Shown piece after piece: positions 4,444-30,353 of a stretch of DNA of 35,587 bases. Location of the stretch: assembly GCA_016211165.1 (NCBI GenBank), contig JACQSU010000086.1, forward strand, positions 1 through 35,587, written 5' to 3'. This stretch comes from Candidatus Woesearchaeota archaeon. Its GTDB lineage: Archaea > Nanobdellota > Nanobdellia > Woesearchaeales > JAGWAF01. Below the pieces are notes generated by a model that worked only from the letters and a program-made list of their open reading frames with translations, was not told where the DNA came from and searched no databases. Within the stretch, counting starts at the first letter, position 1; each line of letters starts with the position of its first letter. A program made the translations under genes and the position numbers.

Positions 4444-4487
4444 ACCCCACCGCTACCCAGATATAGACGCGTACGATCCCAGTGTCC

Positions 4488-12761: not shown

Positions 12762-13577
12762 ATGACACAACCACAACCAGCAAGGAAACCATCAGTCGAT
12801 GAGTACATCACCAATCTCAAAACCGGAGGATGGACCAATTCTGATGCGTTACGAAAAGCAATCAGCGAAGGATACGGTAATGAAATTATTACCACCATAC
12901 GCAACGATCATGCGCACATAGTCACGCGCAACATCCTCATTGGCCTATGCATGCTCTTCGCTGCAATTCTCATAGGACTCACATTTACAAGACCAGGAAC
13001 CCCTGCCTATGACCTCACCTACCAAGCCACCCAAACACTCAACCTTGCGCCATGCCTTGCCTTGCAAGACCCAGGAGAGAGAACCCACTGCATCGAATCG
13101 GTAAGCGCAGCAGCCCAACGGATCCTATCACACTCGCAAAGCGATTTACACGCACGAACCCTTGCAAGCACAGTCCTTGCAGCAACAACAGAACCCAACC
13201 GATGCGAGACACTAGAAGCAACACTTCGAACCACATGCACAGACCAGTCATCATATTGGCGCGCCATCATCAGCGGCGACACATCATCATGCTCGAGCCT
13301 TAGTGATACACCTGCGCGCACGGCGTGCGTCATCGAAACACTCCAACGACACGATCCAGCACAAGCAGCACAACTCGCCGCATCATACGAAGAAGCGCTC
13401 ACCACTGCGCTCCAAGGCCGCAACCCCTCCTTATGCAACCAACTAGGCCAGAAGGATCTTGTGACGCAATGCACGATCGCAGCATCCTTTCAGCTCGCCA
13501 CGACAACACAGGACCCCATCCACTGCCAATCGATCTCCGATGATACCATTCGAGCACAGTGCACAATGCTCACTTGA
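12762..13577 (+). CDS. Membrane-anchored protein with short Cys-pair repeats
   Basis: TM 'ILIGLCMLFAAILIGLTF'; repeats 'CSSLSDTPARTAC', 'CNQLGQKDLVTQC', 'CQSISDDTIRAQC'. Confidence 0.75.
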   Translation: MTQPQPARKPSVDEYITNLKTGGWTNSDALRKAISEGYGNEIITTIRNDHAHIVTRNILIGLCMLFAAILIGLTFTRPGTPAYDLTYQATQTLNLAPCLALQDPGERTHCIESVSAAAQRILSHSQSDLHARTLASTVLAATTEPNRCETLEATLRTTCTDQSSYWRAIISGDTSSCSSLSDTPARTACVIETLQRHDPAQAAQLAASYEEALTTALQGRNPSLCNQLGQKDLVTQCTIAASFQLATTTQDPIHCQSISDDTIRAQCTMLT

Positions 13578-13625: not shown

Positions 13626-15806
13626 ATGAAGACACCCCTGCTTTTCCGAATTCTGGTCGTCTTGTGCTTTCTTGCAGCCGTCTTCAACTCCCCTGGTTCT
13701 GCTACACCCAGCTCCGGATGCCAAATCCTTCATCGCAACCTCATACTCACCCACAACCTCACATCCAATGGCACCTGTTTTACCATCGGAGCAAACGGAG
13801 TGACGCTTGATTGCGCAGGGTTTACGATTCGCGGCAATGCAAGTGATGTGCTCATTAATATCTCGCGCAAACATGGTGTTATCGTCAAGAATTGCCGCTT
13901 TGCTAATGCGAGCATCAGTGTTCTTATGGAGGATGTGAATAACAGCCTTATCAATAACGTGACTCATGACACCATCCGATATCTTGGAACCATCACCCCG
14001 GACTGGAATAGAATCTCACGCAACACCACTATCGCCAACAGTGATAACTTCATCCTCTACAAACCGAACAATGGCGATGCCAGCAGTCTTGTCCTTGAGA
14101 ACAACACCAATATGGGATTCCAACGGGCGACGTTTAGCTCTTTTAATAACAACACGATCATTAGAGCGGAGTCCCTACACGGAAACCTCGGAACCTCATC
14201 TCGTTTTACCAACAACCACATCAGCGGAATCCACACCACGTTTAGCAACTCCATGACATTTATCAACAACACCTTCACCAACACATCCTTGACAGGCATT
14301 GGACTCACTGGAGCGAGCGCAGACATCATTTTCATCAACAATGACGTACGAAATGTTCCCCGATTCTGGCACATCGGCGGGGGCGGATTCGCAGCCAATC
14401 ATCGCATTATTGGCAACACATTCTATAATATCAGTCTTGCATTAGCCTACCCTGGCTACGGACCTGCGACAAACACCATCATCGTCAATAACAAATTCCT
14501 TAGCATCGGCACCGCCATCATCCTCAACAATGCCAGGCACAATGTCCACCTCCTCAATAATACCTTCAACGCCACCTACAGTGCGATTAACCTTGGCACC
14601 ACTGCCCCTAATCACAACGCAGTCATTGCGAATAACACATTCAATACAACAGAATATGGAATACAATTCTTTGGTACGAGCAATAATACCCACATCCTGG
14701 GAAATACATGGCTTGCAGGAAGCACCGGCATTCTTTTGAGCAGCACAACACAAGGAGCAAGCGCCAACAACACCCTTATCAGAGGAAATACGTTTAGGAC
14801 AACCACTACCCCTATTAGCCTCACCACGCTTGGAGCCAGCGGACAAAGCGCAGCAGTCCTTCGCATCATCGACACTCTGATGCTAAGCACGGGAAGCGGC
14901 ATATCACTCACTGGAGCAGAAAGCCCTTACATCAACAACAATACAGCGAACGCAACAACTTCAACCACACCGACCATTGCGCTCTTCAACGCGACACAAG
15001 GCATAGTCTCCAATAACACCATTAACAACGCGAGGCATAGCGTCAGGCTCATCACTTCGCGGGCGACCCTCCAAGACAACCTACTGGTGGACACACCCCT
15101 TGGAGTTGTTATTAACGACACCGGCTGGCCAGCAGGAGAATACACCATTGACAACACCACATTCCTCACACCCCCACGAGAATCCATCCACATCAGCGAC
15201 ACACTCAATGTCACCATCACCGGCCCCCTGCCTGCAAATATCACCATCCAAAACAGCACCACAACACGCATCACCTTAACCAGCCCCCTCCACGCGCACA
15301 CACGCCACCTCTCTGATATTATCAGCCTCACCAACAATCTCGCGTATCTAAACAGCACACTTGCACCTGAATGGAACACCAGCGCACGCATCTCCCTGCA
15401 CAACCTTAACTTCCTTGACCCACAACCCTACATACGCTTCCTTGACTATGGATCATTCCACAACTGCCCCCCAATGATATGCACCACACTCACGCGGGAC
15501 CCTCTCACAAATACATACCACCTTGACGTCAACCACTTTACCACCTACACCATAGGCGAAGGACAACTCCCCCAACCCATCCCTGCATCGGCACTTCCCG
15601 CGCCATCAGAAAACATCTGTTGCTGCAATTCCCAAGGACTCGCACAGAAGCCAAGCGTACTCTTCTCCGGAGCAGCATTTCCACTTGGATGTGACACTGC
15701 AGCGGAATTTGTAGAACATCCCCCACCAATCGCTAGCCTTGATATCGATTTCTCCACTGCATGCACCACCGTATGCATGGAAGACGCAATCCAACAATAC
15801 ATATAA
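13626..15806 (+). CDS. Secreted right-handed parallel beta-helix (NosD/pectin-lyase-like) protein with C-terminal six-Cys module
   Basis: Signal peptide; 'CFTIGANGVTLDCAGFTI'; many 'I.NNTF' repeats; Pro linker then 'NICCCN...CTTVC'. Confidence 0.82.
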   Translation: MKTPLLFRILVVLCFLAAVFNSPGSATPSSGCQILHRNLILTHNLTSNGTCFTIGANGVTLDCAGFTIRGNASDVLINISRKHGVIVKNCRFANASISVLMEDVNNSLINNVTHDTIRYLGTITPDWNRISRNTTIANSDNFILYKPNNGDASSLVLENNTNMGFQRATFSSFNNNTIIRAESLHGNLGTSSRFTNNHISGIHTTFSNSMTFINNTFTNTSLTGIGLTGASADIIFINNDVRNVPRFWHIGGGGFAANHRIIGNTFYNISLALAYPGYGPATNTIIVNNKFLSIGTAIILNNARHNVHLLNNTFNATYSAINLGTTAPNHNAVIANNTFNTTEYGIQFFGTSNNTHILGNTWLAGSTGILLSSTTQGASANNTLIRGNTFRTTTTPISLTTLGASGQSAAVLRIIDTLMLSTGSGISLTGAESPYINNNTANATTSTTPTIALFNATQGIVSNNTINNARHSVRLITSRATLQDNLLVDTPLGVVINDTGWPAGEYTIDNTTFLTPPRESIHISDTLNVTITGPLPANITIQNSTTTRITLTSPLHAHTRHLSDIISLTNNLAYLNSTLAPEWNTSARISLHNLNFLDPQPYIRFLDYGSFHNCPPMICTTLTRDPLTNTYHLDVNHFTTYTIGEGQLPQPIPASALPAPSENICCCNSQGLAQKPSVLFSGAAFPLGCDTAAEFVEHPPPIASLDIDFSTACTTVCMEDAIQQYI

Positions 15807-15807
15807 A
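15801..15807 (+). promoter_or_regulatory. TATA box for the gene at 15833
   Basis: ATATAAA ~26 nt before the ATG. Confidence 0.5.
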
Positions 15808-15832
15808 CCCGAATCTAGCAGTTCACACCCCA

Positions 15833-17188
15833 ATGAGCACCAGTAACCTTGTTCGCCGAAGCCAAATCAGCTGGGCGATCATCCTCACCATCTTTTTTCT
15901 TATCCTCTTTGCGATGCTTCTCTACCTCTTGTCATCCTACATGCAAGCCGGAGCAGACCTAAGCCTTATCCGAGGACAACTTAGCGAGACAGAACTCGTC
16001 CCACTCAAAGAGCATATCCAAGACTGTCTGGACCTTGCCAGTCGCAAAGGCCTTATTCTCGCAGGCAAACACGGAGGCGTCATCTACACAAGCCAAGGAG
16101 GACCCACACCGGACCCTCCTCCTACGTCCCTTGGAGAGGACTATCTGCTCTATGAAGGTGACATCATCCCCTATGCAGTCGTACCTTTCAGAGGCACTTT
16201 AGGCGGAGGATCATTTCGATACGCTGCAGAACCACCAGAATATCCCTGGGACGGATTCCCAGAATATCAACCACCCTGCGACACCACCTGTCCACCGCCC
16301 ACTACCAGCACCAAAGGCCTAAGCGGATACAACCTCCTTACCAGCCTGCCAAAACTCTTCACTGTCTCCATGCAAGACCAACTGGAACGCTACATCCATA
16401 ACACCACCCTCACATGCATCGACTGGAACCAATTCACCACTCTTGCAACATCCGCAGGCAACTCAAGCCTTCATGTCATCATCACCCACGCAAGCACGAT
16501 CATATCCTTCGAATACCCCCTCGTGATCACCAATACCATAACCGGCGCACAGGGCCGTATCCGCGATTTTCTCATCGAGTATCCTGTGCGCCTTGGACAG
16601 ATGATCAACTTCACAAGCGACACACTCGATGATGAAGTCTCCACACTCGAATTCAACCTTAACGCAAGCACTGTAGAAACCCTCACGTTTGAACGACGCG
16701 ACCACATCCACAATCTTGACTACATTATCATTACATCTGATCCTCAAAGCACCATACTTGAAACTCCGTATGAGCTGCGCTTTGCCATACGCAACCGCCG
16801 CCCCGCCCTCTTCTTACTCAATGACTCGCGTCACAGAACCCTCAACACATTTGTGATCTGTGGCGGCAAAGACTCCAATCAAAACTATGACCCACCCATC
16901 ATTTTTCTAACCCAGAACCAAGCACAATTGTGCATTCAAAACGGCAATGGATGCAACCCATCGTCCACCTGCGCAATACTTAACGCCATCGACCCGGACG
17001 ACAACCCTCTTACATATACATACCAACTTGACACGCCAGAACCCACAAACGCCACAACAATAGTGAGCGAAGCAACACTGATTCTTTTGCAAGCCACCAA
17101 TCAACGATTAGGAATCATGGTGAATGTCACCGACGGACAACATGCAGATAGCCAAACGCTCCGCTTCCGCACCACACGCATCCCCTAA
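15833..17188 (+). CDS. Large pilin-like protein with class III signal peptide; paralog of 20949-22352
   Basis: 'RRS|QISWAIILTIFFLILF'; shares 'HIQDCLDLASR', 'PPEYPWDGFPEYQ', 'STILETPYELRFAIRNRRPAL' with the paralog. ATG 15833 lies ~26 nt after a TATA box. Confidence 0.78.
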   Translation: MSTSNLVRRSQISWAIILTIFFLILFAMLLYLLSSYMQAGADLSLIRGQLSETELVPLKEHIQDCLDLASRKGLILAGKHGGVIYTSQGGPTPDPPPTSLGEDYLLYEGDIIPYAVVPFRGTLGGGSFRYAAEPPEYPWDGFPEYQPPCDTTCPPPTTSTKGLSGYNLLTSLPKLFTVSMQDQLERYIHNTTLTCIDWNQFTTLATSAGNSSLHVIITHASTIISFEYPLVITNTITGAQGRIRDFLIEYPVRLGQMINFTSDTLDDEVSTLEFNLNASTVETLTFERRDHIHNLDYIIITSDPQSTILETPYELRFAIRNRRPALFLLNDSRHRTLNTFVICGGKDSNQNYDPPIIFLTQNQAQLCIQNGNGCNPSSTCAILNAIDPDDNPLTYTYQLDTPEPTNATTIVSEATLILLQATNQRLGIMVNVTDGQHADSQTLRFRTTRIP

Positions 17189-17200
17189 TCAACAACAACA

Positions 17201-17208
17201 TATATAAA
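17201..17208 (+). promoter_or_regulatory. TATA box at the start of the 17231-30888 gene run
   Basis: TATATAAA ~23 nt before GTG 17231. Confidence 0.6.
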
Positions 17209-17230
17209 TGATCCAGACGGTATAATTGAC

Positions 17231-17992
17231 GTGGCAACTACACACCGAACATTGCGCGATGTGCCGCTCACCTATGCAATTCTTGGAATCCTTGTATTAC
17301 TGCTTCCGATTTACTACGCACTCCTTGACGGACTGCCACGCACAGGTTCCCCTACAGGCGCGCAAACAGCAGAGACACCTGCACAACCTGCAGGAGCAGA
17401 ACCAGCATGCCCCACATTCCCAGCAGGAGGAATGGGCGGGGGATGCAGACTCCTTGGCAATGGAGTCATCAATGTTCCAGCAGAATGCCTCCTCCCATCA
17501 GGATGCACGCTACGCATGAGCAGCACACAATCCACCCCAATTCCACCATGGGGGCAAGGAAGCGGACCAGCATACCGCACATCACAGATTCGCTATGCAC
17601 AGGACCCCACAAGCAACCTGGTCACGCTTGAAGGAAGCCTTATTCAAATTCCTTATTATTCTTATAATCCCTTTTTGAGCTATCCGCAAAGTATTCCCAA
17701 CTACTACATCACTCAGGCGATCCGAGAATCATATAACTTCGTCCCTGGAGGAGGTGTGCCCAGCGAACCGTCCCTTATGACCATGCTCCAAGGAGCAGGC
17801 AGCAGCGAATCCAAAAGCATCCGCTTCCTATACTCTGGGAGTGGAAGCATCTATTATGGAGGTAACATATACGATCTTTTCTGCCAACTAGTTATTGACG
17901 GCGCTCTTGAAAACTCACCACTCCAATTTAACGTCCTCCCTGCGCCAGGAAAGTCCACCCCTCCAATCTGCAATCTGTATGTCTGCCCATGA
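17231..17992 (+). CDS. Hypothetical membrane-anchored/exported protein (253 aa)
   Basis: TATATAAA at 17201 before the GTG; N-terminal TM helix; Pro/Ala linker; ATGA overlap with the next gene. Confidence 0.65.
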   Translation: MATTHRTLRDVPLTYAILGILVLLLPIYYALLDGLPRTGSPTGAQTAETPAQPAGAEPACPTFPAGGMGGGCRLLGNGVINVPAECLLPSGCTLRMSSTQSTPIPPWGQGSGPAYRTSQIRYAQDPTSNLVTLEGSLIQIPYYSYNPFLSYPQSIPNYYITQAIRESYNFVPGGGVPSEPSLMTMLQGAGSSESKSIRFLYSGSGSIYYGGNIYDLFCQLVIDGALENSPLQFNVLPAPGKSTPPICNLYVCP

Positions 17993-20949
17993 GTAAAACC
18001 GACGTGGAGAACCTTGAAAAATTCGGCCTCGCCTCGTTTTCTCAAGATTCTTCTCTGCAATCCCTGGTTATCATCAGCATCACCATCCTTGCCTGTGCTA
18101 GTACAACATCAGCACAACTCACCATGGAACTTGTCTATCCTAATGGCAGCAGCACTGGCACAAACACCACCTGCCCTGACTTTTTTACCTGCATGAACAA
18201 CCTCAACACCTCCATGGTCTGCGACCAAGAAGGCATCTACAATGCAAGCTACACCATCGGAGGACTCAGCAGCACATTCCCAGCATACCCAGTCTGCTAC
18301 TCATTCAAAGGATACTGCAAAGGAGCAGGAGCAACACCCTACGCATGCTTTCCCAACCGCATCGTCGAATGGTCTGACACATCCAACCTCTGCTGCGGCG
18401 CACGACCACCAACACAATGCGGCAAGAACCTGGGCACAACAACATGCGCAAATCCAGGAGGATCACCTGATGTATGGAGCATCGTAAACCCCACAACCAC
18501 GATAGGCGAGGTCGTGCGCGTCGCATGCGCCGACGGAACACTGCTTAGCAATGGCAACACATTCCTTGCCTGCGCAGACACCACCAAACTCGCATCATCA
18601 TACCCCCTGCTTGCTGTTGCGCAGATTGGCAAACCAGGCCGCACACTTCCCAACCACGGATTCATCTGCGCAGAAGAGGACCCTACACGAAACAACAGCA
18701 TCCTTGCCATCCACGAATGCACTGGAGGGGAACCAGGATACGGCGCTGGAGCCAGCGGCTCAAGCACAGGAGAGCGCATCACGCTTGGAGAACTCTTTTC
18801 CGCGAGCATCGGACGTGATGACACGCTATCTGTCAGCGCCCAACGCAACATCAACCCTGCCCAAGGACGCATCAGCGCCATCATCATCACACGCTGGCCT
18901 GGCAGTGAAGATCTGACACGCACACTAATAAGCGCACGCGAGAGCGACACCAAACACCTTGACATCATCAAAAGCAAGAATACCCTCACATGCAGCACTA
19001 CCAACGGCGCAACAACACACTCCGCTCTGGTCAACATCTCCACATGGGCACCCAACGAACCCCACATCATCGAGATGATCTACGGACCAGCAGGCATCAA
19101 CTGCACTGTCGATATGGGCGCATCAAGCAAGACACAAACCTACACACCCATCAATCCATTAACACTCACCATCGGATCAGCACACGGCCAAGCGCAGAAA
19201 TTTAACGCAGACATCAACATCAGCATCAATAATCTTCTCACAAGCGACACACATTACTGCGCAAATGACGCCCAATGGGTCATCGACTTGGACACCAAAA
19301 ACCAAGAAACCTGCACACGCGCACACCTTGCCTGGACAGGAAGCAAATGCTGCTCAGAACACGAAGACCTGCCCTACGAATCCTACAATGACCCGGATCC
19401 TGAAGACTATGACCCAAGCGCAAGCGGCGCCTGTTACCAGAGCCAACACACCCAAAACGGCAAGATCCTGCACAATGGCAGCGTCGCACTCCGCCTTGGC
19501 CAATTCGTCGGTTGCGACCTTGAAACACACAACCAAAGCCTTCTCCGCATCAATGATACCCATACCAATACCACACTCATCGCTGACAAACCCGCCTGCA
19601 CAACCCTTTTTAATCTCTCCAAAGGCATTGTCAACCCTGTTGTCTGCGGGCTTGATGGCAAATGGAATTTCACAAACAACCTTGTACAACACCACCTTGC
19701 TCCCACACCACAAGAAATACTCAACGCACTTGACCCAAGCAATACACAGCGCCGGAGCCCCTCTGGCTGCTGCCCACAACTATCATGCTGGGATGGCAAA
19801 CGCTGCATCGCAAATCAAAAAGACGACAGCAAAACACCAAGCATTGCAGGATATCGCTGCATCGACGGAAACTGGCGCATCCAAGCCCAGCGCACGACAT
19901 TTGACCGATCAGACACAGGATTCTGCCCCAGAGATGACCAATGCCTTATCAAAAGCAATGGCAACCCAAGCCTTAATGACCAACCGCTTCGCCATAATCT
20001 CACCGACCCAACCAAAGGACCTGCCTGCATTGCAGACGGACAACACGTCCTACAAAAAGGCGTGCTAGGCGACTTTAGCGGCACATACTGTCAAAACGGC
20101 ACGTGGACAACACGAACAAAGACACTTGCACTTCATCTTATGGACCACGCCGAAACCACCAGCGCAGGAACCTGGGCAATGTTCTGCGACACATACGAAA
20201 ACGCGCTCACGTTTGTCTCTGACATCCCTGGCGTATCGGATGTGAGCGGCCTTTTGCGTGAATGCACCACAGAAGGACAACAAACACCCTGCGTCAACGA
20301 ATTCTGTGTCCTCAAATACAATCGCGGCGTTGCATGGGGCGTTAGCCTTAACAAACCCATCAATGACCCGACCAAAAGCTTCCTTATAGCGCTTGGACTA
20401 GCGTCCACAAGCTGCAATCAACACATCCTTCCCATAGCAGACAACCAATTCCACGACTGCAGCCAAGGCGTGTGGTACAACCAAGGACAAAACAGCATCA
20501 TATATCTCCCTATCACAGACCAACTCCCCCCACGCCCAACACCCACAATCATAGCTTCACAAGACCCCACGCTGACCACACGCCTCACACCCATCACCAC
20601 CCTTGCACAATCAGCGCTCACACAAGAACTTGCCAATATCACCGCACACACAACGCTTCTTGAACACCTCTACATCAATCGCATCACATCACGCGACATG
20701 ATCGCATTCATCGAAACCCAAGCAAGCCGCGGCGCCGAAAGCACATACCTCGGCGCCACCTACGCACACGTCAACTTCACCGACATCAGCGGCCTTAGCG
20801 GATGCACACTCATCAACAGCAAGATCACCACTGACCTTGCCACTGCATGCACAAATATAAGCAACACACTTACATTCATCGGATTCCAAACACCAGGAGG
20901 AGGAAACCTCGACAGCATCTGGCCTGATGTCTCTGCAAAACTCCGATAA
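17989..20949 (+). CDS. Large secreted Cys-rich protein (986 aa), probable LamG/ConA-like domain; paralog of 9791-12760
   Basis: Collinear similarity to the 989-aa protein through the C-terminal 'QTPG.GNL..IW.D..AKLR'; signal peptide ending 'TTSA|Q'. Confidence 0.8.
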   Translation: MSKTDVENLEKFGLASFSQDSSLQSLVIISITILACASTTSAQLTMELVYPNGSSTGTNTTCPDFFTCMNNLNTSMVCDQEGIYNASYTIGGLSSTFPAYPVCYSFKGYCKGAGATPYACFPNRIVEWSDTSNLCCGARPPTQCGKNLGTTTCANPGGSPDVWSIVNPTTTIGEVVRVACADGTLLSNGNTFLACADTTKLASSYPLLAVAQIGKPGRTLPNHGFICAEEDPTRNNSILAIHECTGGEPGYGAGASGSSTGERITLGELFSASIGRDDTLSVSAQRNINPAQGRISAIIITRWPGSEDLTRTLISARESDTKHLDIIKSKNTLTCSTTNGATTHSALVNISTWAPNEPHIIEMIYGPAGINCTVDMGASSKTQTYTPINPLTLTIGSAHGQAQKFNADINISINNLLTSDTHYCANDAQWVIDLDTKNQETCTRAHLAWTGSKCCSEHEDLPYESYNDPDPEDYDPSASGACYQSQHTQNGKILHNGSVALRLGQFVGCDLETHNQSLLRINDTHTNTTLIADKPACTTLFNLSKGIVNPVVCGLDGKWNFTNNLVQHHLAPTPQEILNALDPSNTQRRSPSGCCPQLSCWDGKRCIANQKDDSKTPSIAGYRCIDGNWRIQAQRTTFDRSDTGFCPRDDQCLIKSNGNPSLNDQPLRHNLTDPTKGPACIADGQHVLQKGVLGDFSGTYCQNGTWTTRTKTLALHLMDHAETTSAGTWAMFCDTYENALTFVSDIPGVSDVSGLLRECTTEGQQTPCVNEFCVLKYNRGVAWGVSLNKPINDPTKSFLIALGLASTSCNQHILPIADNQFHDCSQGVWYNQGQNSIIYLPITDQLPPRPTPTIIASQDPTLTTRLTPITTLAQSALTQELANITAHTTLLEHLYINRITSRDMIAFIETQASRGAESTYLGATYAHVNFTDISGLSGCTLINSKITTDLATACTNISNTLTFIGFQTPGGGNLDSIWPDVSAKLR
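18006..18053. repeat. Palindromic element, family 1 (inside gene 5' end)
   Basis: GAACCTTGAAAAA-TTCGGCCTCGCCTCG-TTTTCTCAAGATTC. Confidence 0.7.
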
Positions 20950-22352
20950 TGATCATGAAAAACTCTGAAAAACTCGGCTCCGCCTCATTTTTTCAGAGTT
21001 TTCTATCCTCACGCGCACAAGTGAGCGGCATGCTCATCCTTGCAACCCTCCTTGTCTTCTTCTTTGCCGCACTCTACTATATCACCACGACATACATCCG
21101 ATCGACTGGCGAAGCGACAATATCCAGGCAACAACTTAGCGAAACCGAACTTGTCCCCCTGCGCACGCATATTCAAGACTGCCTTGATCTTGCCAGCAGA
21201 AACGGGCTTGCACTCGCCGGATTCCAAGGCGGACTCATCTACCGCAGCCAACAAGGACCGCATCCAGACCCGAATCAAGCCGACCTAGGATACACATACC
21301 TCACCTACGACGGAAAAAACCTTCCCTACGCCATTATCCCACCCCAAGAAACCCTTGGACCATACCAAAGCGACCCACCGGAATACCCGTGGGACGGATT
21401 CCCGGAATACCAAGCGCCCTGCACCGAGACCTGTCCTGGACGAATCAACCTAACCAAAGCATTCGCAGGATACAATCTCCTCACCAAACTCGGAAAGAAC
21501 TTCAGCATCTCAATGCAGGACCAACTCGAAGACTACATCCTCACCAAAACCACCACCTGCATCGACTGGCAACAATTCACAAACAAAAACCTCGAATTCT
21601 CAAAAGGCACACCAATGCTCAACGTAAGCATTGCGCAGGCAAGCACCATCATCACGCTCGACTACCCCATCGAGGCAACAAACACCATCACAGGAGCACA
21701 CGCAACACTTCGCGCATTTGCCATCGAATACACTGTACGCCTTGGACAAATGATCAGTTTTACCAGCGACATCATCGACGCAGACATATCCGACCTTGCA
21801 TTTAATCTTAGCGCAAGCGCGGCCGAGAGCCTCACCTTTGAACGCAAGAACCGCATCAGAGGACTCGACTATGTCATCATCACCACAGACCCACACAGCA
21901 CCATCCTCGAAACACCCTACGAACTCCGATTCGCCATCCGCAACCGAAGACCAGCACTCTACTTACTTAATGACTCCACACACCCTGAAATCAACACGTT
22001 CATCATCTGCGGGAGCAAGGACGCGGATGGCAACTACGACCCGCCCAAACTCTCCATCAGAGAATCACCCACCCAATTCTGCATTATCAATGGCGCAGGA
22101 TGCGACCCCACAGGCATATGCGCGCCCCTCAATGCCCTGGACCCTGACGATAATCCCCCCCTATACACTTATAAACTCGACAATCCCGAGAGCACGGCAC
22201 CAACCAGCGGCCAAACCACAGTGAGCGAAGGCACACTTGCATTTTTGCAACTCAACAATGAACGTCTCGAACTGACTGTGAACGTCACAGACGGAGAACA
22301 CGCGGACAGCCAAACACTCCGCTTCCCAGCAACACTCATCGCACGCACATGA
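20949..22352 (+). CDS. Large pilin-like protein with class III signal peptide; paralog of 15833-17188
   Basis: 'SRA|QVSGMLILATLLVFFF'; translationally coupled on both sides; collinear with the paralog. Confidence 0.8.
   Translation: MIMKNSEKLGSASFFQSFLSSRAQVSGMLILATLLVFFFAALYYITTTYIRSTGEATISRQQLSETELVPLRTHIQDCLDLASRNGLALAGFQGGLIYRSQQGPHPDPNQADLGYTYLTYDGKNLPYAIIPPQETLGPYQSDPPEYPWDGFPEYQAPCTETCPGRINLTKAFAGYNLLTKLGKNFSISMQDQLEDYILTKTTTCIDWQQFTNKNLEFSKGTPMLNVSIAQASTIITLDYPIEATNTITGAHATLRAFAIEYTVRLGQMISFTSDIIDADISDLAFNLSASAAESLTFERKNRIRGLDYVIITTDPHSTILETPYELRFAIRNRRPALYLLNDSTHPEINTFIICGSKDADGNYDPPKLSIRESPTQFCIINGAGCDPTGICAPLNALDPDDNPPLYTYKLDNPESTAPTSGQTTVSEGTLAFLQLNNERLELTVNVTDGEHADSQTLRFPATLIART
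20959..21002. repeat. Palindromic element, family 1 (inside gene 5' end)
   Basis: Perfect 14-bp stem AAAACTCTGAAAAA / TTTTTCAGAGTTTT around CTCGGCTCCGCCTCAT. Confidence 0.8.
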
Positions 22353-25300
22353 CACGCAACCCCATCCTGTGGACCCTGACTATTGCGGCACTTCTTGCCA
22401 TCATCGCGCTTTACGCATCAGCAGCAAATATCTGCTGCTGCAACCCTGCGGGCCTTGCGCAAACACCCGGAGTCCTGCAATCCGGACAAGCCCCACCACT
22501 GGGATGCGACACAGCCGCAAACTTCACTGAATTCCTACCAGTCGTCGAATCCCTTGACGTGAACTTCAACACCATCTGCCTTACTGTATGCAACGAAAGC
22601 AGACAACCACCCATCCTCATCAATGTCACACTCGAATGCGGCAACCCAGAATTCCGACCACCAGCAAGCAACCTTAACATCAAACCCATCCAAGGAGCAC
22701 GAGCCTTTGAACTCACCTGGAAAACAAACTGCACATCATACATCGAGTCGTATAGCATCGGCAGATGCGAAGGCATCGACTGCAGACCAGCGAACTTCCT
22801 TGACCTGGGACTCTTTGCCGAAGACAATATCACATCAATCGAGAAACGATTCATCGATGATGATCCACTACTTGAATACTTCACCAACTACACATACCAA
22901 CTCATCGTCAATTACAAAGGATTCGGACCAAGCCCAGCAGCAGTAGGCATCATCGAAAGCGGCGACATCGAATGCGACGGACGCACCACGGACCAGCAAT
23001 TCTGCATCAATGGCAAAGACTTCTACTTGCGACCATTTGAAATCTACCTCAAACAATTCGGCTATGGACCACTCCCCGGCATCCGCTTCCGCACCAGATA
23101 CGAAGACACCGTTGACCTTGCCTTCTTTGGAAGAAACCGACGCGCCTACCAATGCACAACAACCAATGAACTCACCCAAACCCGGGACTGCAGCCAAGAA
23201 GGATTCTGCATCATCCGCAACAATATCCCAATGTGCGTACAGGAAGAAAACTGCAAAAACGCAACCCAATTCGCCCTCGATGTCACCCAACAAAGCTGTG
23301 AAGGAAGCACATCAAGCCCACGCTACTGCTTTTTTGATCGCAGCAGAACACTCATCGACGACTGCTTTGGCTGCAGACCCGACCTTTTGTGCATCGACTA
23401 CAAGAGCAAGGGAGCCTGCGAGCGCGACAATTGCAAACTCGCCAACTGCGCATGGCGGGATGTCTTCCCATCCATCGGCATCGGCGTATGCGTCAATACC
23501 CAACAAAACAACTGCTTCCTATGCAACGCAACAGGCTCCTTTAACAGCCCCACAAACGCAAGCTTCAACCAAATCTTTGACACATGCATACGATCCCGAA
23601 GCGACGCGCTTAGCACAGAAAAATACCCCTGCTTTTTTAGCACCAAGGACGACGGCGGAAGCAGAAGCTGCACAGACGCGGACTGCACGGTTTTCACCCA
23701 AGCAGAATGCGGACGGCCAATAAACGGCATCCAACTTGACAATCTTAACAGACTCATCAGCAGATCAACAGATCCCTGCACTATCGGCGTATGCGACTTT
23801 GACCCGAGTGTAGGATGCGCCAAGAATGCAAATGCAAAAATCGACGTAGGATCTGACTTTAGAGACTGCGGATCACTTCCTGCAAACAAACAACGCGGAT
23901 GCGAACTCGACTACTTCCCGCCAACAACAACCATTGTCCCCACAAGCCCCACAAACCCTTCCCGCGTCGACGCGCTTAACATCACCCAACGGGACAAAGC
24001 AAACCTCACCACAGGAGCCGCGCTCATTGCGGACCGCGCCAAACGACTCAAAACAGCATTCTGCACCTACCCCACAGGCGGCACACCATGCACACAGATG
24101 AGGGACACAACCTCACCAGCGCTCCTGCTTAATGACCTTCTCTTACTTGATGGCACGGCAGTCGTCGCCAATCTTGTGGAAGGATCCAATACCATCCGAT
24201 TCTTTAGCGAAGACGCTGCCAAGAACCTTGAAATCATCAAAGAAGTCCGCTTTTCAGCCTGCGCCCGATGCCAGGGACCACGAATCATCGGAAAGAATGT
24301 AAGCAATGGCAAACTCGTGAATAGCATCTTCTTTACCAATGATCAACAACCCAAAGTCGCCTTGCAATTCAACGAACAAGCCACTATCATTGAAGCAATC
24401 TTTATCCAACCCATCGGACGCACAGTCCGCGTCACGCCCTCACGCCAGATCTTTACTAGCGAAAACCTCAACTACACCTTTGAGAGCATCGAATCACTTG
24501 CCGAATCAACATACACATTTCAAGTCAATGCAAAAGACAACCAAGACGTCCCCATGGACGAACCTGACACAACAACCATCATCATTGACCGCACACCACC
24601 ACGAATCAATGCCACAGGCAATCTCATTCCACTCGGACTTGCAACATTCAACACCGACACCATCGCCATCATCCTTAACTTCAGCGAAGAAATCGACATC
24701 CAAGACATTATCCTCTCCCGACTAGAAATCGATGACTTCAACACCAGAATTGTCGAAGCATCGCTACGCAATAACTTCACCATCTCCCCAACACACGCCA
24801 AGGCAACACTGCGCTTTAGCGACGGCCCACACACACTCCGCATCATCGCCACAGACCACGCATCAAACCCACTTGATCCAAACAAGGCACGATTTGATTT
24901 TATCATCTCCAAAGGCGCAAGCCGCATCCGTCTTCTCTCACCAGCATTTGGCGCATCCCCAAACTTTAGTTTCGATGTCGGCATTGAAACACTCGTGCCA
25001 ACAAAATGCCGATTCCTCTCCCGCCCGGGAACACTCATCCCCAATGACTTTTTGGACTGGCAAAAATTCGATGATAATGACGCATTCTCCACACGCCACA
25101 CCCTGGCAAGATACAGTGACATCACAGAACCAAACACCAAAACACCATTCCACGTCTTTTGCATGGATGGACAGAACCGACCAACAAAACAGGTATTCGA
25201 ACTCCAGGTCCAAAACAGCCCCCCGCGCATCCTCTCTGCGCTCGCAGACCCCAACCCCATCATCCAATTCCCATTGCGCACAACACTCAAAATCAACACA

Positions 25301-28198
25301 GACATCGACACATTCTGCAAATACTCAAACACTACAAGCAACTTTGATGCAATGGAATCCACATTCCCAGGATTCAACCTTGCCTTACGTCAAACACACG
25401 CCGCAGATATAGAAGTCAATACGATCGGAAGCTTCATCTACAATGTCGCCTGCAAAAGCGCAAGCGGCCTTGGACCAGTCGCCACAACAATTCAATTCAC
25501 GGTCAATCCCAATATCGCATTCCTTCTTGAAGATAGGACACCCCCTGGATTTATCTTTGCATCAGCCCAAGCACAGGTATCCATCCTCGCAAACAAGGAC
25601 AGCCTCTGCAGCTTTTCTGTAGACAATGTAAGCAGATTCACCGAGAACGCCCTCTCAAAAAGCCACACATACACATCGACTTTTAGCGCAGGAAGCCACG
25701 AGGCGAACACCGTCTGCAGGACTGGCGGCGCCACAGTCATCAGCGGCACCCCGCAAACAGCAACCATAACCACACCATTCATCAATGACCTTGCCAACCC
25801 TATCATGCTCCTTGTCAATGACAGCACACGATTCGAAAACCCCCAAGAAAGCGCTGATCGCGATCGCCTCCAAGTAGTCTATAATGGGACGGACGCGGAT
25901 TCCGGCATCGCCAAATACCGCATCAATATCCACAACCAAACAAGCATCATCCGAAGCATCGAAGAGAATCAGCCAATGGAACAGCGCATCTTCACAGGAC
26001 TCAAACTTGTGAATCGCACCCGGTACTTCTTCGAAGTCCAAACAGTCGACTTTGCCGGACGCAACAGCACATTCAAACGATCAAGCGGCGTCCTTATCAC
26101 CACAGACGCGCGGCCTGCAACATGCTTTAACAATAGAACCGACGGCACTGAAACAGCGCTTGACTGCGGAGGCATCTGCGAGCCATGCGCCGATGGCAAA
26201 CGATGCTTAACCAACAGGGACTGCGAAACAGCAAGCTGCATTAACAATATCTGCAGGACACCAGGATGCACGGACGGCATCAGAAACGGCGACGAAACCG
26301 CCATTGACTGCGGAGGATCCTGCAACCCATGCCCTGTGCGCAATGACTCTGATTCCCGCACAAATCGCACAAGACGAGCAGGATGCATCTCTAACTCTGA
26401 CTGCATCTCACGACTCTGCGGCCAGGACGGCACCTGCCAAGAACCAGCGACGTGCCAAAACAGCAGACTCGATGTCGGAGAAAGCGACGTCGACTGCGGC
26501 GCTGGATGCCCAACAAAATGCGCAGAAGACAAAACCTGCCAAACAAGAGCGGACTGCGCAAGCGGACTATCCTGCCAAGCGCCAAACGCAGACCAACCAC
26601 GCGTCTGCACAGACATCAACAAAGACACTGATAACGATGGCATCCCTGATGACTTTGAACGCAGACACGGCCTTGACCCCAATGACAATGGAGACGCGAC
26701 CCAAGACCCTGATCGCGATGGCCTTAGCAACCTGGAAGAGTTCGAATACTTCAAAAAAACAGGCAAGGAAATTGATCCACAAGACAACGACACAGACAAC
26801 GACGGCGCACCCGACGGACTCGAGCTTCGGGTCGGCACAGACCCCACAGACTATAATTCCAAACCAAGCGAGATTGACACGGACGGAGACCTCATACCCG
26901 ACGACTTTGAACGCGCCTACGGCCTTAACCCCGATGACGGAAACGACGCGATCCAAGACAAGGACGACGATGGCCTAAGCAACCTTGAGGAATATAGATA
27001 CTTTAAGGAAAACGGCAAAGTCATTAACCCCTCCAAAAAAGACACAGATGGAGACGGATTCACAGACAAGGAAGAAATCGACGCAGGAACAGACCCCACA
27101 ATCCCAACAGACCACCCTGGACGCGCCGATGACACAGACCTTGACGGCATCCCCGATGACTTTGAACGCGACCACGGCCTTAACCCCAATGACAATGGAG
27201 ACGCAACACTTGACCCGGACGGCGACGGCCTCACCAATCTTGAAGAATACAACCACTTTGCCCAACGAGGACAACTCATCGACCCCCAAGACCCAGACAC
27301 TGACAACGACACATACTCGGACAAAGAAGAGGTCGATGCAGGATCAAATCCTGCAGACCCCAACAGCCAACCCCTGGACACGGACGGCGATACCATCCCG
27401 GACTACTACGAACGCCTCTATGGCCTTGACCCCCAAGACCCCACGGATGCCGACGAAGACCTTGATGGCGATGGCCTTACCAACAAAGAAGAATATGACT
27501 ACTATCACCGCACATACAAATTTATCGACCCCCGCATCGCAGACACGGACGGCGACGAATACAGCGACGGCCGCGAAGTCAGCAGCGGCAGCGACCCCAC
27601 GGTCCCATCCAGCATCCCAGGATTCCGATGGGCCTGGTGGATGACTGCCATTATCCTCCTGATTCTTGGCGGCGCCGCAGCATACTGGATATACACCCAA
27701 CGACAACCACGCATCACACCACCACGACCCCCCACAATCAGCGCAGGAGGCAGACTCATCCCCCCTGCCCCAACTCAACCACCAACAGCACGCGAGGCAA
27801 AAGAACTCGGTGAAATCAAAAAACCTGATGTCGGCGCGGCAGCAAAACCAGAATGGATCTCCATTGCAGAAATGAATGAAGAAAACATGAAAAAACACGA
27901 AGAAGACATCTTTTCAAAACTCCGAAAATTTGGCGCAGAACCTGCAGAGAAGATGCAAAAACTCCAAGAAATCGCGCTAAGCACATTCACACCAACAGAA
28001 CGCGAAGACATCAAGAAAAAACTCGACCTGGCACGCAAAGGCAAACTCACACCACAAGAACTCGAAGCACTCTTCCGCAAACTACGCATCACTGCAACAT
28101 ACTGGGAAAAGAACAAAGAAGCCATCCAAACCCAATTTGAAGAATGGGTCAAACGAGGAGCCATCATCAAAAAAGCAGCAGGCAAACCAAAGAAATGA
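22349..28198 (+). CDS. Giant membrane-anchored surface protein (1949 aa): Cys-rich region, Ig/FN3-like beta domains, ETxxDCGG repeats, Asp-rich Ca-binding repeats, TM helix, cytoplasmic tail
   Basis: Signal peptide; 'ETALDCGG/ETAIDCGG/ESDVDCG'; four 'DTDxDGxPDxxE..GLxP' units; TM 'WWMTAIILLILGGAAAYWIY'; charged helical tail. Confidence 0.85.
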   Translation: MTRNPILWTLTIAALLAIIALYASAANICCCNPAGLAQTPGVLQSGQAPPLGCDTAANFTEFLPVVESLDVNFNTICLTVCNESRQPPILINVTLECGNPEFRPPASNLNIKPIQGARAFELTWKTNCTSYIESYSIGRCEGIDCRPANFLDLGLFAEDNITSIEKRFIDDDPLLEYFTNYTYQLIVNYKGFGPSPAAVGIIESGDIECDGRTTDQQFCINGKDFYLRPFEIYLKQFGYGPLPGIRFRTRYEDTVDLAFFGRNRRAYQCTTTNELTQTRDCSQEGFCIIRNNIPMCVQEENCKNATQFALDVTQQSCEGSTSSPRYCFFDRSRTLIDDCFGCRPDLLCIDYKSKGACERDNCKLANCAWRDVFPSIGIGVCVNTQQNNCFLCNATGSFNSPTNASFNQIFDTCIRSRSDALSTEKYPCFFSTKDDGGSRSCTDADCTVFTQAECGRPINGIQLDNLNRLISRSTDPCTIGVCDFDPSVGCAKNANAKIDVGSDFRDCGSLPANKQRGCELDYFPPTTTIVPTSPTNPSRVDALNITQRDKANLTTGAALIADRAKRLKTAFCTYPTGGTPCTQMRDTTSPALLLNDLLLLDGTAVVANLVEGSNTIRFFSEDAAKNLEIIKEVRFSACARCQGPRIIGKNVSNGKLVNSIFFTNDQQPKVALQFNEQATIIEAIFIQPIGRTVRVTPSRQIFTSENLNYTFESIESLAESTYTFQVNAKDNQDVPMDEPDTTTIIIDRTPPRINATGNLIPLGLATFNTDTIAIILNFSEEIDIQDIILSRLEIDDFNTRIVEASLRNNFTISPTHAKATLRFSDGPHTLRIIATDHASNPLDPNKARFDFIISKGASRIRLLSPAFGASPNFSFDVGIETLVPTKCRFLSRPGTLIPNDFLDWQKFDDNDAFSTRHTLARYSDITEPNTKTPFHVFCMDGQNRPTKQVFELQVQNSPPRILSALADPNPIIQFPLRTTLKINTDIDTFCKYSNTTSNFDAMESTFPGFNLALRQTHAADIEVNTIGSFIYNVACKSASGLGPVATTIQFTVNPNIAFLLEDRTPPGFIFASAQAQVSILANKDSLCSFSVDNVSRFTENALSKSHTYTSTFSAGSHEANTVCRTGGATVISGTPQTATITTPFINDLANPIMLLVNDSTRFENPQESADRDRLQVVYNGTDADSGIAKYRINIHNQTSIIRSIEENQPMEQRIFTGLKLVNRTRYFFEVQTVDFAGRNSTFKRSSGVLITTDARPATCFNNRTDGTETALDCGGICEPCADGKRCLTNRDCETASCINNICRTPGCTDGIRNGDETAIDCGGSCNPCPVRNDSDSRTNRTRRAGCISNSDCISRLCGQDGTCQEPATCQNSRLDVGESDVDCGAGCPTKCAEDKTCQTRADCASGLSCQAPNADQPRVCTDINKDTDNDGIPDDFERRHGLDPNDNGDATQDPDRDGLSNLEEFEYFKKTGKEIDPQDNDTDNDGAPDGLELRVGTDPTDYNSKPSEIDTDGDLIPDDFERAYGLNPDDGNDAIQDKDDDGLSNLEEYRYFKENGKVINPSKKDTDGDGFTDKEEIDAGTDPTIPTDHPGRADDTDLDGIPDDFERDHGLNPNDNGDATLDPDGDGLTNLEEYNHFAQRGQLIDPQDPDTDNDTYSDKEEVDAGSNPADPNSQPLDTDGDTIPDYYERLYGLDPQDPTDADEDLDGDGLTNKEEYDYYHRTYKFIDPRIADTDGDEYSDGREVSSGSDPTVPSSIPGFRWAWWMTAIILLILGGAAAYWIYTQRQPRITPPRPPTISAGGRLIPPAPTQPPTAREAKELGEIKKPDVGAAAKPEWISIAEMNEENMKKHEEDIFSKLRKFGAEPAEKMQKLQEIALSTFTPTEREDIKKKLDLARKGKLTPQELEALFRKLRITATYWEKNKEAIQTQFEEWVKRGAIIKKAAGKPKK
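26624..27620 (+). repeat. Four tandem ~250-nt coding repeats (thrombospondin type 3-like DxDxDG Ca-binding units)
   Basis: Units start at 26624, 26876, 27131 and 27377 (spacings 252, 255, 246 nt), each with three DxDxDG-type loops. Confidence 0.85.
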
Positions 28199-28725
28199 GC
28201 AAACTGGGCCAAATCATCGGACAAGCGCTCCTCTTTGCACTCGGCGCCATCATCTTTGCCATGACCCTCATCTACGGATACAGCGCCATTAGCAAACTCA
28301 CCCAAGTCAAATCCGAAGTATGCCTCATCGACATGCAAAAAACACTCAAAAACCAAGTCGAACGCGTCCGCGCATCATTTGGCACAGTACGACGCATGGA
28401 CCTCACCATCTGCGCAGGCCACACAGAGATCTGCTTTATCGACCGCGACAGAGTCCTTGAAGGACAAAGCGGCCCCTGCCAAGGAGAGCGCATCAACAAA
28501 CTCGCCCAACGAAGCAGCCTGATGAAGGACGCGGTATGCAGCGGCTCTGACCAAAATGTCTTCTTAAAACCCGCAAGCGCCACACCCATCACCATCGGAA
28601 CAATCACTGTTGATCACCCTGACGGATTCCTCTGCTTTGAAGACATCGAAGCATCCACTATCTCACTACGCCTCGAAGGCAAGGGCGATCACACGCAGAT
28701 CGGCACATGGAAAATCATTGAATGA
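28195..28725 (+). CDS. Pilin-like protein, class III signal peptide
   Basis: ATGA overlap with the upstream stop; 'MSKLG|QIIGQALLFALGAIIFAMTLIYGY'. Confidence 0.75.
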   Translation: MSKLGQIIGQALLFALGAIIFAMTLIYGYSAISKLTQVKSEVCLIDMQKTLKNQVERVRASFGTVRRMDLTICAGHTEICFIDRDRVLEGQSGPCQGERINKLAQRSSLMKDAVCSGSDQNVFLKPASATPITIGTITVDHPDGFLCFEDIEASTISLRLEGKGDHTQIGTWKIIE

Positions 28726-28756
28726 TTTTTTATAGGCCAACAAGGCGAAGCAAACC

Positions 28757-29773
28757 ATGGTCGCATCCTCAAAGAGCGGACAACTTGAAGTTCCACTCAA
28801 CTGGCTCTTCATCCTCATCGCAGGCGGCGCCATCCTCATCACATTCTTCGCATTCATCCAACGCCAACAAAGCGCAAGCGAACTCTCCATTGCAGAGAAC
28901 CTTGTAAGCGACCTTGAAAGCATCGCATCTGTCGCAGGCACAGCCAAAGGCACAGCACAACAAATCGACTTTCCCGAAGAAGACATCACCATCGGATGCA
29001 CTCCTGACTGCAGCTGCCTCTTTAGCATCGGAGCCATTAGCAAGCCATTTGGCACAAACCTCATCTACTCACCAAACCTCATCCGAGGACCAAACCTTGT
29101 CCTATACTCCATCGACTGGAACGTCCCATTCCGCGCAAACAACCTCCTTATCCTCACCAATAGCAGAACACGCTACATCCTCATCACGCCCACACTCACC
29201 CCACCCATCAACCGACTCATCAGCATCATCCCAAACATGACCAACTTACGCGTTGCCAAAGGCCCAGAGGCCCAAACCGCCAAAAACCAACGCCAACCCG
29301 AAGGCAAGATCAGATTCATCTACTTTAGTCAAGGACAATGCGACGACTTCCGAGGAATCGAGCTTGATGAACAAGACTTTAGCTGCCTCGAAGTAGACCT
29401 TGAGAAACACACCTTGGATTTTTACTACAGGAATCGCGCAGGAACCATCCTCGGACCAGACCGGCAAACATACCTTAGCGAAGGCGACTTGATCGGAGCA
29501 CTATTTACAGAGTCCCCTGACCAATACCGCTGCAACAGCCAAGCAGAGATGCTACGCCTAGCAAACCTTGCCAGCGTCTACCAACGCCGAGCCGCAAATG
29601 TCACGACCTCCACATGCGGCAAGAGCTATACCGATGCAGCGACGCAATTTGAACGACTTGCAACAGAAGCACGCAAGGCAGAAAATGCAAGCAAACTCCT
29701 CTTGCACTACAGCATACTAAGCAACCTAAGCGAAGAGTTCATCAGACTCTCATGCAAACCGGAGCTGTTCTAA
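28757..29773 (+). CDS. Pilin-like protein, class III signal peptide
   Basis: 'KSG|QLEVPLNWLFILIAGGAILITFF'. Confidence 0.75.
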   Translation: MVASSKSGQLEVPLNWLFILIAGGAILITFFAFIQRQQSASELSIAENLVSDLESIASVAGTAKGTAQQIDFPEEDITIGCTPDCSCLFSIGAISKPFGTNLIYSPNLIRGPNLVLYSIDWNVPFRANNLLILTNSRTRYILITPTLTPPINRLISIIPNMTNLRVAKGPEAQTAKNQRQPEGKIRFIYFSQGQCDDFRGIELDEQDFSCLEVDLEKHTLDFYYRNRAGTILGPDRQTYLSEGDLIGALFTESPDQYRCNSQAEMLRLANLASVYQRRAANVTTSTCGKSYTDAATQFERLATEARKAENASKLLLHYSILSNLSEEFIRLSCKPELF

Positions 29774-29774
29774 A

Positions 29775-30353
29775 ATGGCGAAATCTCACAAACTCGGCCT
29801 GCGACCTTATTTTTTGAGAAGAATCCGAGGGACCGCAACTGCTGGCCGTCATCTACCACGTTCGGGACAGGATTACAATCGAAAGGCCCAAATACAAATG
29901 TTTGAGACCGTCGCTGTGCTTGTCATCTTCTTTTTCCTCATCGCATTCGGACTCTCATTTTACTTTCTTGTAAGCAAGACCCAAGCATCAAAAGAATATG
30001 AAAGAACACTACAACTGCGCAGCATCACATTTACACAGAAAATAGCAACACTCCCAGAACTTGACTGCGTCCGCGTCACAGTCCAAGTTGAGCGATGCTT
30101 TGACAGCCTCAAAACAGACGCCTTCCGACACATCCTCCAAAACCCTGGAATCAAGGATGACTACTTCGCACTCTTCGGATACTCCAATGTCACGATCCAG
30201 GAAATCTTTCCTTCAGTGCACACATACCAACTCTATGACCGCGCGCTACCCAATGCCAGCGCAAGCATCCCAACCACGATTCCCATACTCCTGCGCAACC
30301 CCCACAAAAACACATACTCCTTCGGAGTCCTTCGGGTGACACTCTATGCCTAA
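29775..30353 (+). CDS. Pilin-like protein, class III signal peptide with extended n-region
   Basis: 'RKA|QIQMFETVAVLVIFFFLIAFGL'. Confidence 0.75.
   Translation: MAKSHKLGLRPYFLRRIRGTATAGRHLPRSGQDYNRKAQIQMFETVAVLVIFFFLIAFGLSFYFLVSKTQASKEYERTLQLRSITFTQKIATLPELDCVRVTVQVERCFDSLKTDAFRHILQNPGIKDDYFALFGYSNVTIQEIFPSVHTYQLYDRALPNASASIPTTIPILLRNPHKNTYSFGVLRVTLYA
29784..29819. repeat. Palindromic element, family 1 (inside gene 5' end)
   Basis: TCTCACAAA-CTCGGCCTGCGACCTTAT-TTTTTGAGA. Confidence 0.65.

Follow-up and report, generated by a model that had tools for sequence, protein, structure and literature searches.

A 57-residue module with six cysteines, here called the CCC head module, occurs twice in a 35,587-nucleotide stretch of DNA from Candidatus Woesearchaeota archaeon (GenBank assembly GCA_016211165.1, contig JACQSU010000086.1, forward strand), to which we refer as the window. 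The module is the hallmark N-terminal head of one family of giant surface proteins, represented in the window by a 1949-aa protein (the giant). The giant belongs to a conserved woesearchaeal cassette composed of A, a Cys-rich secreted protein; B, a pilin-like protein; the giant itself; and four small pilin-like genes. The second copy of the module stands at the C terminus of a 726-aa secreted beta-helix protein. We are highly confident of the identity of the domain and of the evolutionary account given below. The module probably has a binding function, for which B or its pilin-like complex is a possible partner.

Two Copies of a Six-Cysteine Module

The two stretches were singled out in an earlier reading of the DNA letters without database searches (the sequence-only reading), and their translations (from 15612–15782 and 22427–22597) are exactly as given there. 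Module 1 ends 7 residues before the stop of open reading frame (ORF) 13626–15806. Module 2 directly follows the 26-residue hydrophobic leader of ORF 22349–28198. The copies are identical at 37 of 57 positions, with no gaps and all six cysteines in register, as that reading had counted by hand (BLASTP E = 3e-25 in a single comparison). The reading saw no other similarity between the two proteins, and this was borne out when the whole 726-aa and 1949-aa sequences were compared: the module matched at E = 1e-18 and the next segment at E = 0.21, so the similarity is limited to the module. The match is not due to chance: in an alignment of 29 sequences from other genomes, none deviates at any of the six cysteines.

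A profile search and a six-frame pattern scan found only these two copies in the genome to which the window belongs (976 kb, 92 contigs, 88% complete). Logan contigs span the junction of linker and module 1 (15476–15795), that of module 1 and B1 (15685–15840), and that of B2 and module 2 (21252–22887). These bridging contigs come from groundwater-metagenome runs of one study, possibly including the source sample, and hence are not independent support; they argue only against a chimeric assembly. No RNA data set with the sequence was listed. Coordinates of the features are collected in Table 1.

Table 1. Features of the window discussed in the text
Feature	Position (nt)	Strand	Evidence
Peptidase_A24 gene (prepilin/class III signal peptidase-like)	4482..5423	+	PF01478, E 2.3e-8, above cut-off
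A1, 989-aa Cys-rich secreted protein	9791..12760	+	ortholog of the A that opens the relatives' cassettes
x271, 271-aa membrane protein with Cys-containing repeats	12762..13577	+	one hydrophobic segment, residues 52–70
726-aa secreted beta-helix protein with C-terminal module 1	13626..15806	+	Pfam Beta_helix E 3.4e-13, NosD E 7.6e-10
Pro-rich linker (GEGQLPQPIPASALPAPSE) from beta-helix body to module 1	15552..15611	+	read from translation
Module 1 (CCC head module, C-terminal copy)	15612..15782	+	translation, BLASTP, 29-sequence alignment
B1, ~452-aa pilin-like protein (RRSQ-ISWAIIL...)	15830..17188, alternative start 15761	+	class III signal motif, tree
y253, 253-aa protein, membrane or secreted, in the extra segment	17231..17992	+	ORF
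A2, divergent 986-aa paralog of A1	17989..20949	+	37% identical to A1
B2, 467-aa pilin-like protein (SRAQ-VSGMLIL...)	20949..22352	+	class III signal motif, tree
Giant, 1949-aa surface protein	22349..28198	+	Pfam TSP3_bac E 2.7e-21
Signal peptide of the giant, 26 residues	22349..22426	+	hydrophobic residues 4–22; cleavage before NICCC inferred by eye
Module 2 (CCC head module, canonical N-terminal position)	22427..22597	+	translation, BLASTP, alignment, AlphaFold2 pLDDT 88.2
Four small pilin-like genes (193, 338, 192, 180 aa)	28144..30888	+	N-termini, hydrophobic helix, synteny with G001/G002

The Module Heads a Family of Giant Surface Proteins

When the first 400 residues of the giant were used as query, 15 proteins of 1354–1949 aa were obtained, the window's own included, and each of them opens with a leader, after which comes x-G-CCC ... 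C ... C-x3-C. A 20-sequence profile of the module was then searched against longer proteins and matched 18, seven of them known and 11 new. All 11 new proteins carry the module at residues 15–30 behind the leader; ten are 1506–1842 aa long and one, on a 4.8-kb contig, is 626 aa. Across the database giants, the cysteine triplet starts at residues 15–44 after a leader in 26 of 26 (the window giant and all 25 others). Five further giants with the module were read from related genomes (G002, G003, G004, G005, and G006). The module conforms to CCC-x14-21-C-x-C-x3-C, and the six cysteines are the only invariant columns of the alignment. In most giants, a Pro-rich linker of 10–19 residues with a sequon separates the module from the next cysteine. 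The window giant has the features that define the family, namely the leader, the CCC pattern, the linker, and a conserved Cys-rich body. For a few of the family's proteins the database sources name Candidatus Woesearchaeota or Nanoarchaeota.

The beta-helix protein is not a member of this family and has the module alone in common with it. It is the single non-giant among the 32 carriers seen; the remaining 31, as the profile and giant searches showed, belong to the one giant family. The suggestion of the sequence-only reading that the module attaches different cargo is therefore thin. Three placements were seen: N-terminal after the signal peptide, C-terminal in the beta-helix protein, and internal in the G004 giant, where a cupredoxin domain (Pfam Cupredoxin_1, E = 3e-11) and a Ser/Thr-rich linker precede the module (L004:1081–1890). 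This is the sole internal placement, and the contig stops within the gene.

The module was also sought more widely. An order-level scan of 401 genomes gave, outside family f1, only four partial matches (E = 0.0025–0.009, 24–26 of 52 positions), which is about chance level for 400 genomes. A hidden Markov model (HMM) search of 1.84 billion representatives with a two-sequence profile returned six matches at E ≤ 0.001, two of which were the window's own proteins. Proteins P0005, P0006, and P0007 and the leucine-rich repeat protein P0008 were rejected as carriers; none has the Cys pattern, and their matches were judged spurious because they are short and partial and are multiplied by repeats. P0006 and P0007 contain a tandem repeat of about 41 residues with VAQDTGVFQSTIAGPLGCDT, which matches module 2 positions 10–29 at 13 of 20 residues. 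We take this resemblance to reflect chance or convergence rather than homology, since the match lies partly within an insertion specific to the window's lineage.

A search for related loci with a five-row B alignment gave four loci. A distant cassette (L036:6995–14745) encodes, in this order, a 2318-aa ORF, a B (22% identical), and a 2103-aa giant whose head is related but begins RGCCLNP, with two cysteines and another cysteine pattern. The cassette type thus appears to extend past the giant family.

Predicted Fold of the Module

The module was modeled with AlphaFold2. An alignment of seq­uences from seven proteins gave a predicted local distance difference test score (pLDDT) of 60; with 29 sequences the pLDDT was 88.2 and the predicted template modeling score (pTM) was 0.67. 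The model has a strand over ICCC (residues 2–5), a short strand at 34–36, and a C-terminal helix at 50–56 that carries the CxxxC motif. This is as expected if the cysteines of the strand are stapled to those of the helix and to the middle cysteine by three disulfides. The module is thus predicted to be a disulfide-stapled alpha/beta mini-domain, with the disulfide pairing itself a prediction. Its autonomy is suggested by the Pro-rich or sequon-bearing linkers that bound it, by its three placements, and by the pLDDT of the model.

The CCC head module is an undescribed domain family. Pfam held no family for either copy at E values up to 10, and neither NCBIfam nor the ESM Atlas gave a match. A search of PDB sequences produced no module match (one row, E = 1.1). 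With the model as query, Foldseek found no matches in the PDB, and VIA-align found no chain with Z ≥ 2 among 48,161. Full-text literature searches returned no description of the CCC module or of the cassette.

The cysteine-stabilized alpha/beta mini-folds of defensins and scorpion toxins, in which a CxxxC helix is disulfide bonded to a CxC strand, offer a partial likeness. The module has a predicted CxxxC helix, a predicted C-x-C strand (within the triplet), and six cysteines in about 45–57 residues. However, its strand precedes the helix, so that the order is reversed, and no PDB fold matched. It is also a domain of giant surface proteins rather than a free peptide.

Selection and Origin of the Second Copy

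At the DNA level, modules 1 and 2 are identical at 102 of 171 positions, with 40/57, 42/57, and 20/57 matches at codon positions 1, 2, and 3, respectively. The third-position identity of 0.35 is the random expectation from the gene's codon bias. Nei–Gojobori counts gave a proportion of nonsynonymous differences (pN) of 0.277 and a saturated proportion of synonymous differences (pS) of 0.811 (pN/pS = 0.34). The combination of a saturated pS with a low pN indicates that the protein sequence of the module was kept long after the synonymous signal had been lost. The dN/dS comparison proposed in the sequence-only reading, run here as pN/pS, thus points to purifying selection. That reading would have regarded the module as a mere duplication scar had it occurred nowhere else, shown no selection, and had no predicted interface; instead there are 32 carriers, and selection is evident.

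Between x271 and B2 the window contains an extra segment that the loci of related genomes lack; it encodes the beta-helix protein with module 1, B1, y253, and A2. B1 and B2 are 59% identical and are sisters within the genus clade, with tree support of 98/98. The modules are closest to each other (37 of 57 positions, versus 19–22 of 50–52 to the heads of the G001 and G002 giants), and they have in common a five-residue insertion that is absent from G001 and G002. The pN of B1 and B2 (0.262) matches that of the modules. Taken together, the sister relationship, the mutual similarity of the modules, the unique insertion, and the matching pN show that B and the head were duplicated within this lineage at about the same time.

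The A proteins have another history. A2 shows a pN of 0.449 and sits on a long branch outside the clade of A1 and the A proteins of G001 and G002. A third paralog of 1130 aa (contig C63:4376–7768, about 45% identical to A1) lies between 826-aa and 284-aa ORFs with no B or module nearby. With three copies, of which the C63 copy is unlinked, against two modules, A fails to follow the module in number.

In the beta-helix protein the N-terminal leader is the sole hydrophobic part, and a membrane anchor is lacking. Its body (residues 412–644) has a 52%-identical paralog on another contig of the same genome (C76), which has a different tail and no module. The 726-aa protein is thus a chimera of beta-helix body, linker, and copied head. 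The copied module probably serves to take this second secreted protein to the binding partner of the giant.

A Conserved Cassette with Pilin-like Genes

The order A, B, giant is found in G001, G002, G008, and G010, with x271 following A in G002. Orthologs of the giant are 50% (G001) and 46% (G002) identical to it. A1 is syntenic with the A proteins of the same two genomes, to which it is 48% and 44% identical, respectively, and it groups with both in the tree (82/93). The protein at the x271 position in G002 is a weak homolog (24% identity). After the giant, the G001 and G002 loci continue with the four small genes o193, o338, o192, and o180. Orthologs of B are present in all 11 family genomes. 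A giant with the CCC head lies directly behind B in nine of them (the window, G001–G006, G008, and G010); the two exceptions are G009, where the contig ends, and G007, which has weak B-like matches only.

The giant consists of the head module, a Cys-rich region, an immunoglobulin (Ig)-like array, TSP3 Ca-binding repeats, a hydrophobic membrane anchor (residues 1761–1782, nt 27629–27694), and a 167-aa tail. With the anchor at the C-terminal side, the head module is the membrane-distal end. The giant also has repeat-level matches to the NCBIfam models MtsD and CglD, far under their cut-offs.

The class III (type IV pilin-like) signal consensus, an N-terminal [KR]-x(0,1)-[GAS]-Q ahead of a hydrophobic helix of some 20 residues, was applied to B. 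All eight homologs with an N terminus begin [KR]-[GAS]-Q-[IV]-[ST], followed by a hydrophobic helix. A strict regular expression for the motif selected four of the 25 window ORFs, namely B1, B2, o192, and o180; o193 (KLGQ) and o338 (KSGQ) fit a looser form by eye. The N termini of the small ORFs (KLGQIIG, KSGQLEV, RKAQIQM, and RAQMEIM) are each followed by a hydrophobic helix. We therefore regard B1, B2, and the four small ORFs as predicted type IV pilin-like proteins, and their assembly into a filament as putative. The genome encodes one T2SSE ATPase (contig C14), and the Peptidase_A24 gene is located 5 kb upstream of the cassette. The four small ORFs resemble minor pilins, and no major pilin is evident.

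The sequence-only reading placed each module next to one of two paralogous large pilin-like genes. This is correct for the ~460-aa B1 and B2, which carry the class III motif: B1 starts (15830) 48 nt past module 1, and B2 ends (22352) 75 nt before module 2, its stop codon overlapping the start codon of the giant. It does not extend to the ~990-aa A paralogs, which lie farther off and have ordinary hydrophobic leaders without the class III motif. For neither B1 (15761–15830) nor B2 (20949–21030) is the start codon certain. In its longest form, from 15761, the B1 ORF shares 46 nt with the end of the beta-helix gene. The databases call B1 at 451 aa and B2 at 440 aa, a length of B2 that would exclude the class III motif. 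Atlas neighbors of B2 fall in Woesearchaeota-only clusters, and its C-terminal part resembles cadherin and Big_9 models at TM < 0.3.

G002 encodes a second B paralog that begins MKNGQVTLFVIV. Its B body is continued, in the same frame, by NCGxCG repeats rich in cysteine and by a Gly-rich, beta-helix-like stretch exceeding 800 residues. This natural fusion joins B to cargo. The paralog is covered by L051:1–387 (−) and L050:3–3497 (+), on contigs C111 and C158, which overlap in sequence at the join.

A Candidate Partner for the Module

The module is autonomous, is under selection, and works at either end of a protein or internally. Such properties speak for binding and less for a role in sorting or as a structural cap. 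Among its possible roles we tentatively rank docking onto B or its pilin-like complex first, with the binding of a host ligand as a close rival. The ancestral head of the giant was duplicated in this lineage along with B, of which B1 and B2 are the products, and the copied head was grafted through a Pro-rich linker to the C terminus of the anchorless beta-helix protein, beside B1. In the docking scheme, the module would be a portable head by which a carrier is plugged into the pilin-like B encoded next to it, or into the complex of B. B would present the cargo; the giant would dock with its distal tip, the beta-helix protein with its tail.

Several observations led us to favor B as the partner. 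B and the giant are translationally coupled, and B and the head underwent duplication jointly, with both copies of each kept. Unfused B genes and modules occur in equal numbers in the three genus genomes (2:2, 1:1, and 1:1). The beta-helix protein lacks an anchor. The pilin-like character of this candidate partner is supported by the class III motif, the Peptidase_A24 gene, and the four further pilin-like genes in the locus. The fusion of B to beta-helix-like sequence in G002 is a Rosetta-stone hint that suggests that B-type domains carry cargo. A co-fold of B2 (residues 50–467, 8-row alignment) and module 2 (20-row alignment) returned ipSAE values of 0.00 and 0.00; this one pair, run with no controls, speaks neither for binding nor against it.

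Other observations weigh against docking on B. The giant is already anchored in the membrane and needs no docking tag for retention, and anchored adhesins usually bind their ligand with the distal tip. The A protein is anchorless and yet lacks the module. B and the module could be adjacent and co-duplicated simply because the gene that neighbors B has the module as its 5' part. With module 1 located upstream of B1, no single tandem duplication gives the layout. A T2SSF platform gene was not found in the genome, at its 88% completeness, which makes the assembly of B into a filament uncertain. The idea of a portable tag for varied cargo relies on the single non-giant among the 32 carriers plus one internal placement, although further carriers may go unseen because the HMM profile held two sequences only. 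Of the portable docking tag proposed in the sequence-only reading, then, a real module stands, bounded by linkers, found in three positions, and kept by selection, whereas docking itself is a proposal.

The arguments about the distal tip count for the close rival, in which the module is a ligand- or host-binding head that acts like a carbohydrate-binding or cell-wall-binding module. The beta-helix protein, possibly a polysaccharide-acting enzyme, would have been retargeted to the same external ligand. We consider this somewhat unlikely but a serious contender. It accommodates the membrane-distal module of a giant that is held by its own anchor and 167-aa tail, the absence of the module from the anchorless A, and the adhesin-type parts of the giant (TSP3, the Ig-like array, and the sub-cut-off repeat similarity to MtsD and CglD of cohesion and gliding adhesins). 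A body joined by a Pro linker to a small terminal module is also the typical architecture of a targeting module. Furthermore, the module evolves fast outside its cysteines, as fits a surface under host-driven change: it is 40–42% identical to the heads in G001 and G002, where the giant as a whole reaches about 50% and 46%. What it leaves unexplained is what favors docking on B: the joint duplication and retention of B and module, their 1:1 count, and the strict translational coupling of B and giant. Nor did Pfam, NCBIfam, Foldseek, or VIA-align reveal similarity to known binding modules.

The cysteines themselves could be the functional element. Cys-knot domains multimerise mucins and von Willebrand factor, and CCC heads might similarly pair, or swap disulfides with A or another Cys-rich partner, thereby bundling the tips of giants and loading the beta-helix protein onto the tip of the giant. 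The six invariant cysteines with their unusual triplet, the many CC doublets of the A proteins, and the presence of two carriers in the one genome with a second module protein fit this proposal. It is nonetheless improbable, as the model is a compact monomer of high confidence, Pfam gave no match to Cys-knot families, and the single carrier in all other genomes examined means that heterotypic loading was not ancestral. Alternatively, the thiols of CCC and CxxxC might hold copper or another metal at the cell surface, in line with the cupredoxin domain directly before the module in G004. That fusion concerns one carrier of 32, the CopC match of P0026 (residues 729–804) is far from its module, the 29-sequence alignment has no conserved His or Met ligands, and the number and spacing of the cysteines fit three disulfides on a strand-plus-helix scaffold; we consider a metal site very unlikely. 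We give just as little credence to module 1 being a functionless leftover of an in-frame rearrangement. The layout does require more than one rearrangement, and the C-terminal copy is found in this genome only. Module 1 is nevertheless in frame after its linker, inside an intact 726-aa ORF, and despite saturated synonymous sites it has kept 37 of 57 residues, the six cysteines, and the genus-level motifs G-x-AQ and CDT (pN/pS = 0.34).

A bolder version of docking on B, which we think rather unlikely, would make the CCC head the plug of an undescribed archaeal cargo-display system, in which B-type carriers that bear a class III signal present very large adhesins or enzymes on DPANN cells. Cargo would reach B either through fusion, of which the G002 paralog is an example, or through docking by the head. 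In the window's genome, the duplicated pairs (B1 and module 1, B2 and module 2) would be on the way to orthogonal docking, each loading different cargo.

Comparison with Known Systems

The cohesin–dockerin pairs of cellulosomes, to which the sequence-only reading compared the module, provide a sound analogy in logic: a small, linker-bounded terminal module is found at either end of its carriers and may attach them to a scaffold encoded nearby. The analogy does not extend to membership. Dockerins are Ca-binding, duplicated loop–helix motifs without cysteines, whereas the CCC module has six and matched no dockerin model in the Pfam and NCBIfam searches described above. No cohesin was found in a Pfam scan of the 25 window ORFs. 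The CTCK domains of mucins and von Willebrand factor are likewise terminal Cys-rich modules of very large extracellular proteins with a possible role in assembly, but the CCC module is shorter and archaeal, has another Cys pattern, and has no Pfam match.

In bacterial systems, a non-pilin adhesin is held by a pilin tip complex. The locus resembles these tips (PilY1/minor pilins of type IV pili, GspH–K of type II secretion) in having several small pilin-like genes, one larger one, and large non-pilin, adhesin-like proteins. It differs in that the giant has its own membrane anchor and that the platform protein was not found in the genome. A1, A2, the giant, and the beta-helix protein had no Pfam or NCBIfam match to PilY1/PilC, and these searches showed no similarity to known minor pilins. 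In the passages of a 2026 survey of archaeal type IV filament (T4F) loci, large adhesin-like, Ig-fold, and beta-helix proteins are described as frequent, including a PilY-like adhesin, and T4F systems as rare in DPANN; the CCC module is absent from those passages (PMC13705601).

The CCC head is probably a kind of modular terminal binding or docking domain for which docking is plausible; the domain family is undescribed, and the DPANN surface cassette is uncharacterised. Hardly any annotation exists for the giant surface proteins of DPANN archaea, whose means of holding onto a host are still debated ground. The recognisable head of 45–57 residues marks one giant family and its cassette. The window adds a natural experiment in which the head was transplanted to a different protein together with a duplicated B. 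The two modules and two B ectodomains are small, expressible reagents with which cognate and non-cognate binding can be compared. Docking of the head on B would amount to a principle of modular display new to archaea, whereas binding to the host would make the head a handle for finding the host ligand.

Other Features of the Locus

No homolog of y253 was found in the loci of relatives or elsewhere in its own genome. It was considered as a remnant of the giant and rejected, as it has no similarity to the giant. A1 has no Pfam or NCBIfam match.

Parts of B and of the beta-helix protein recur outside the cassette. The N-terminal ~80 residues of B and a middle segment (about 178–275) are found in frames of 250–790 aa in every family genome (G000–G010), and the beta-helix body recurs within frames of up to 8405 aa in G007. 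Archaea of this family thus seem to possess a large repertoire of modular surface proteins.

Positions 5445–9641 of the window hold a polyamine gene set, which comprises S-adenosylmethionine decarboxylase, a 575-aa protein with the C-terminal domain of BpsA (branched-chain polyamine synthase), and an AMP-binding enzyme.

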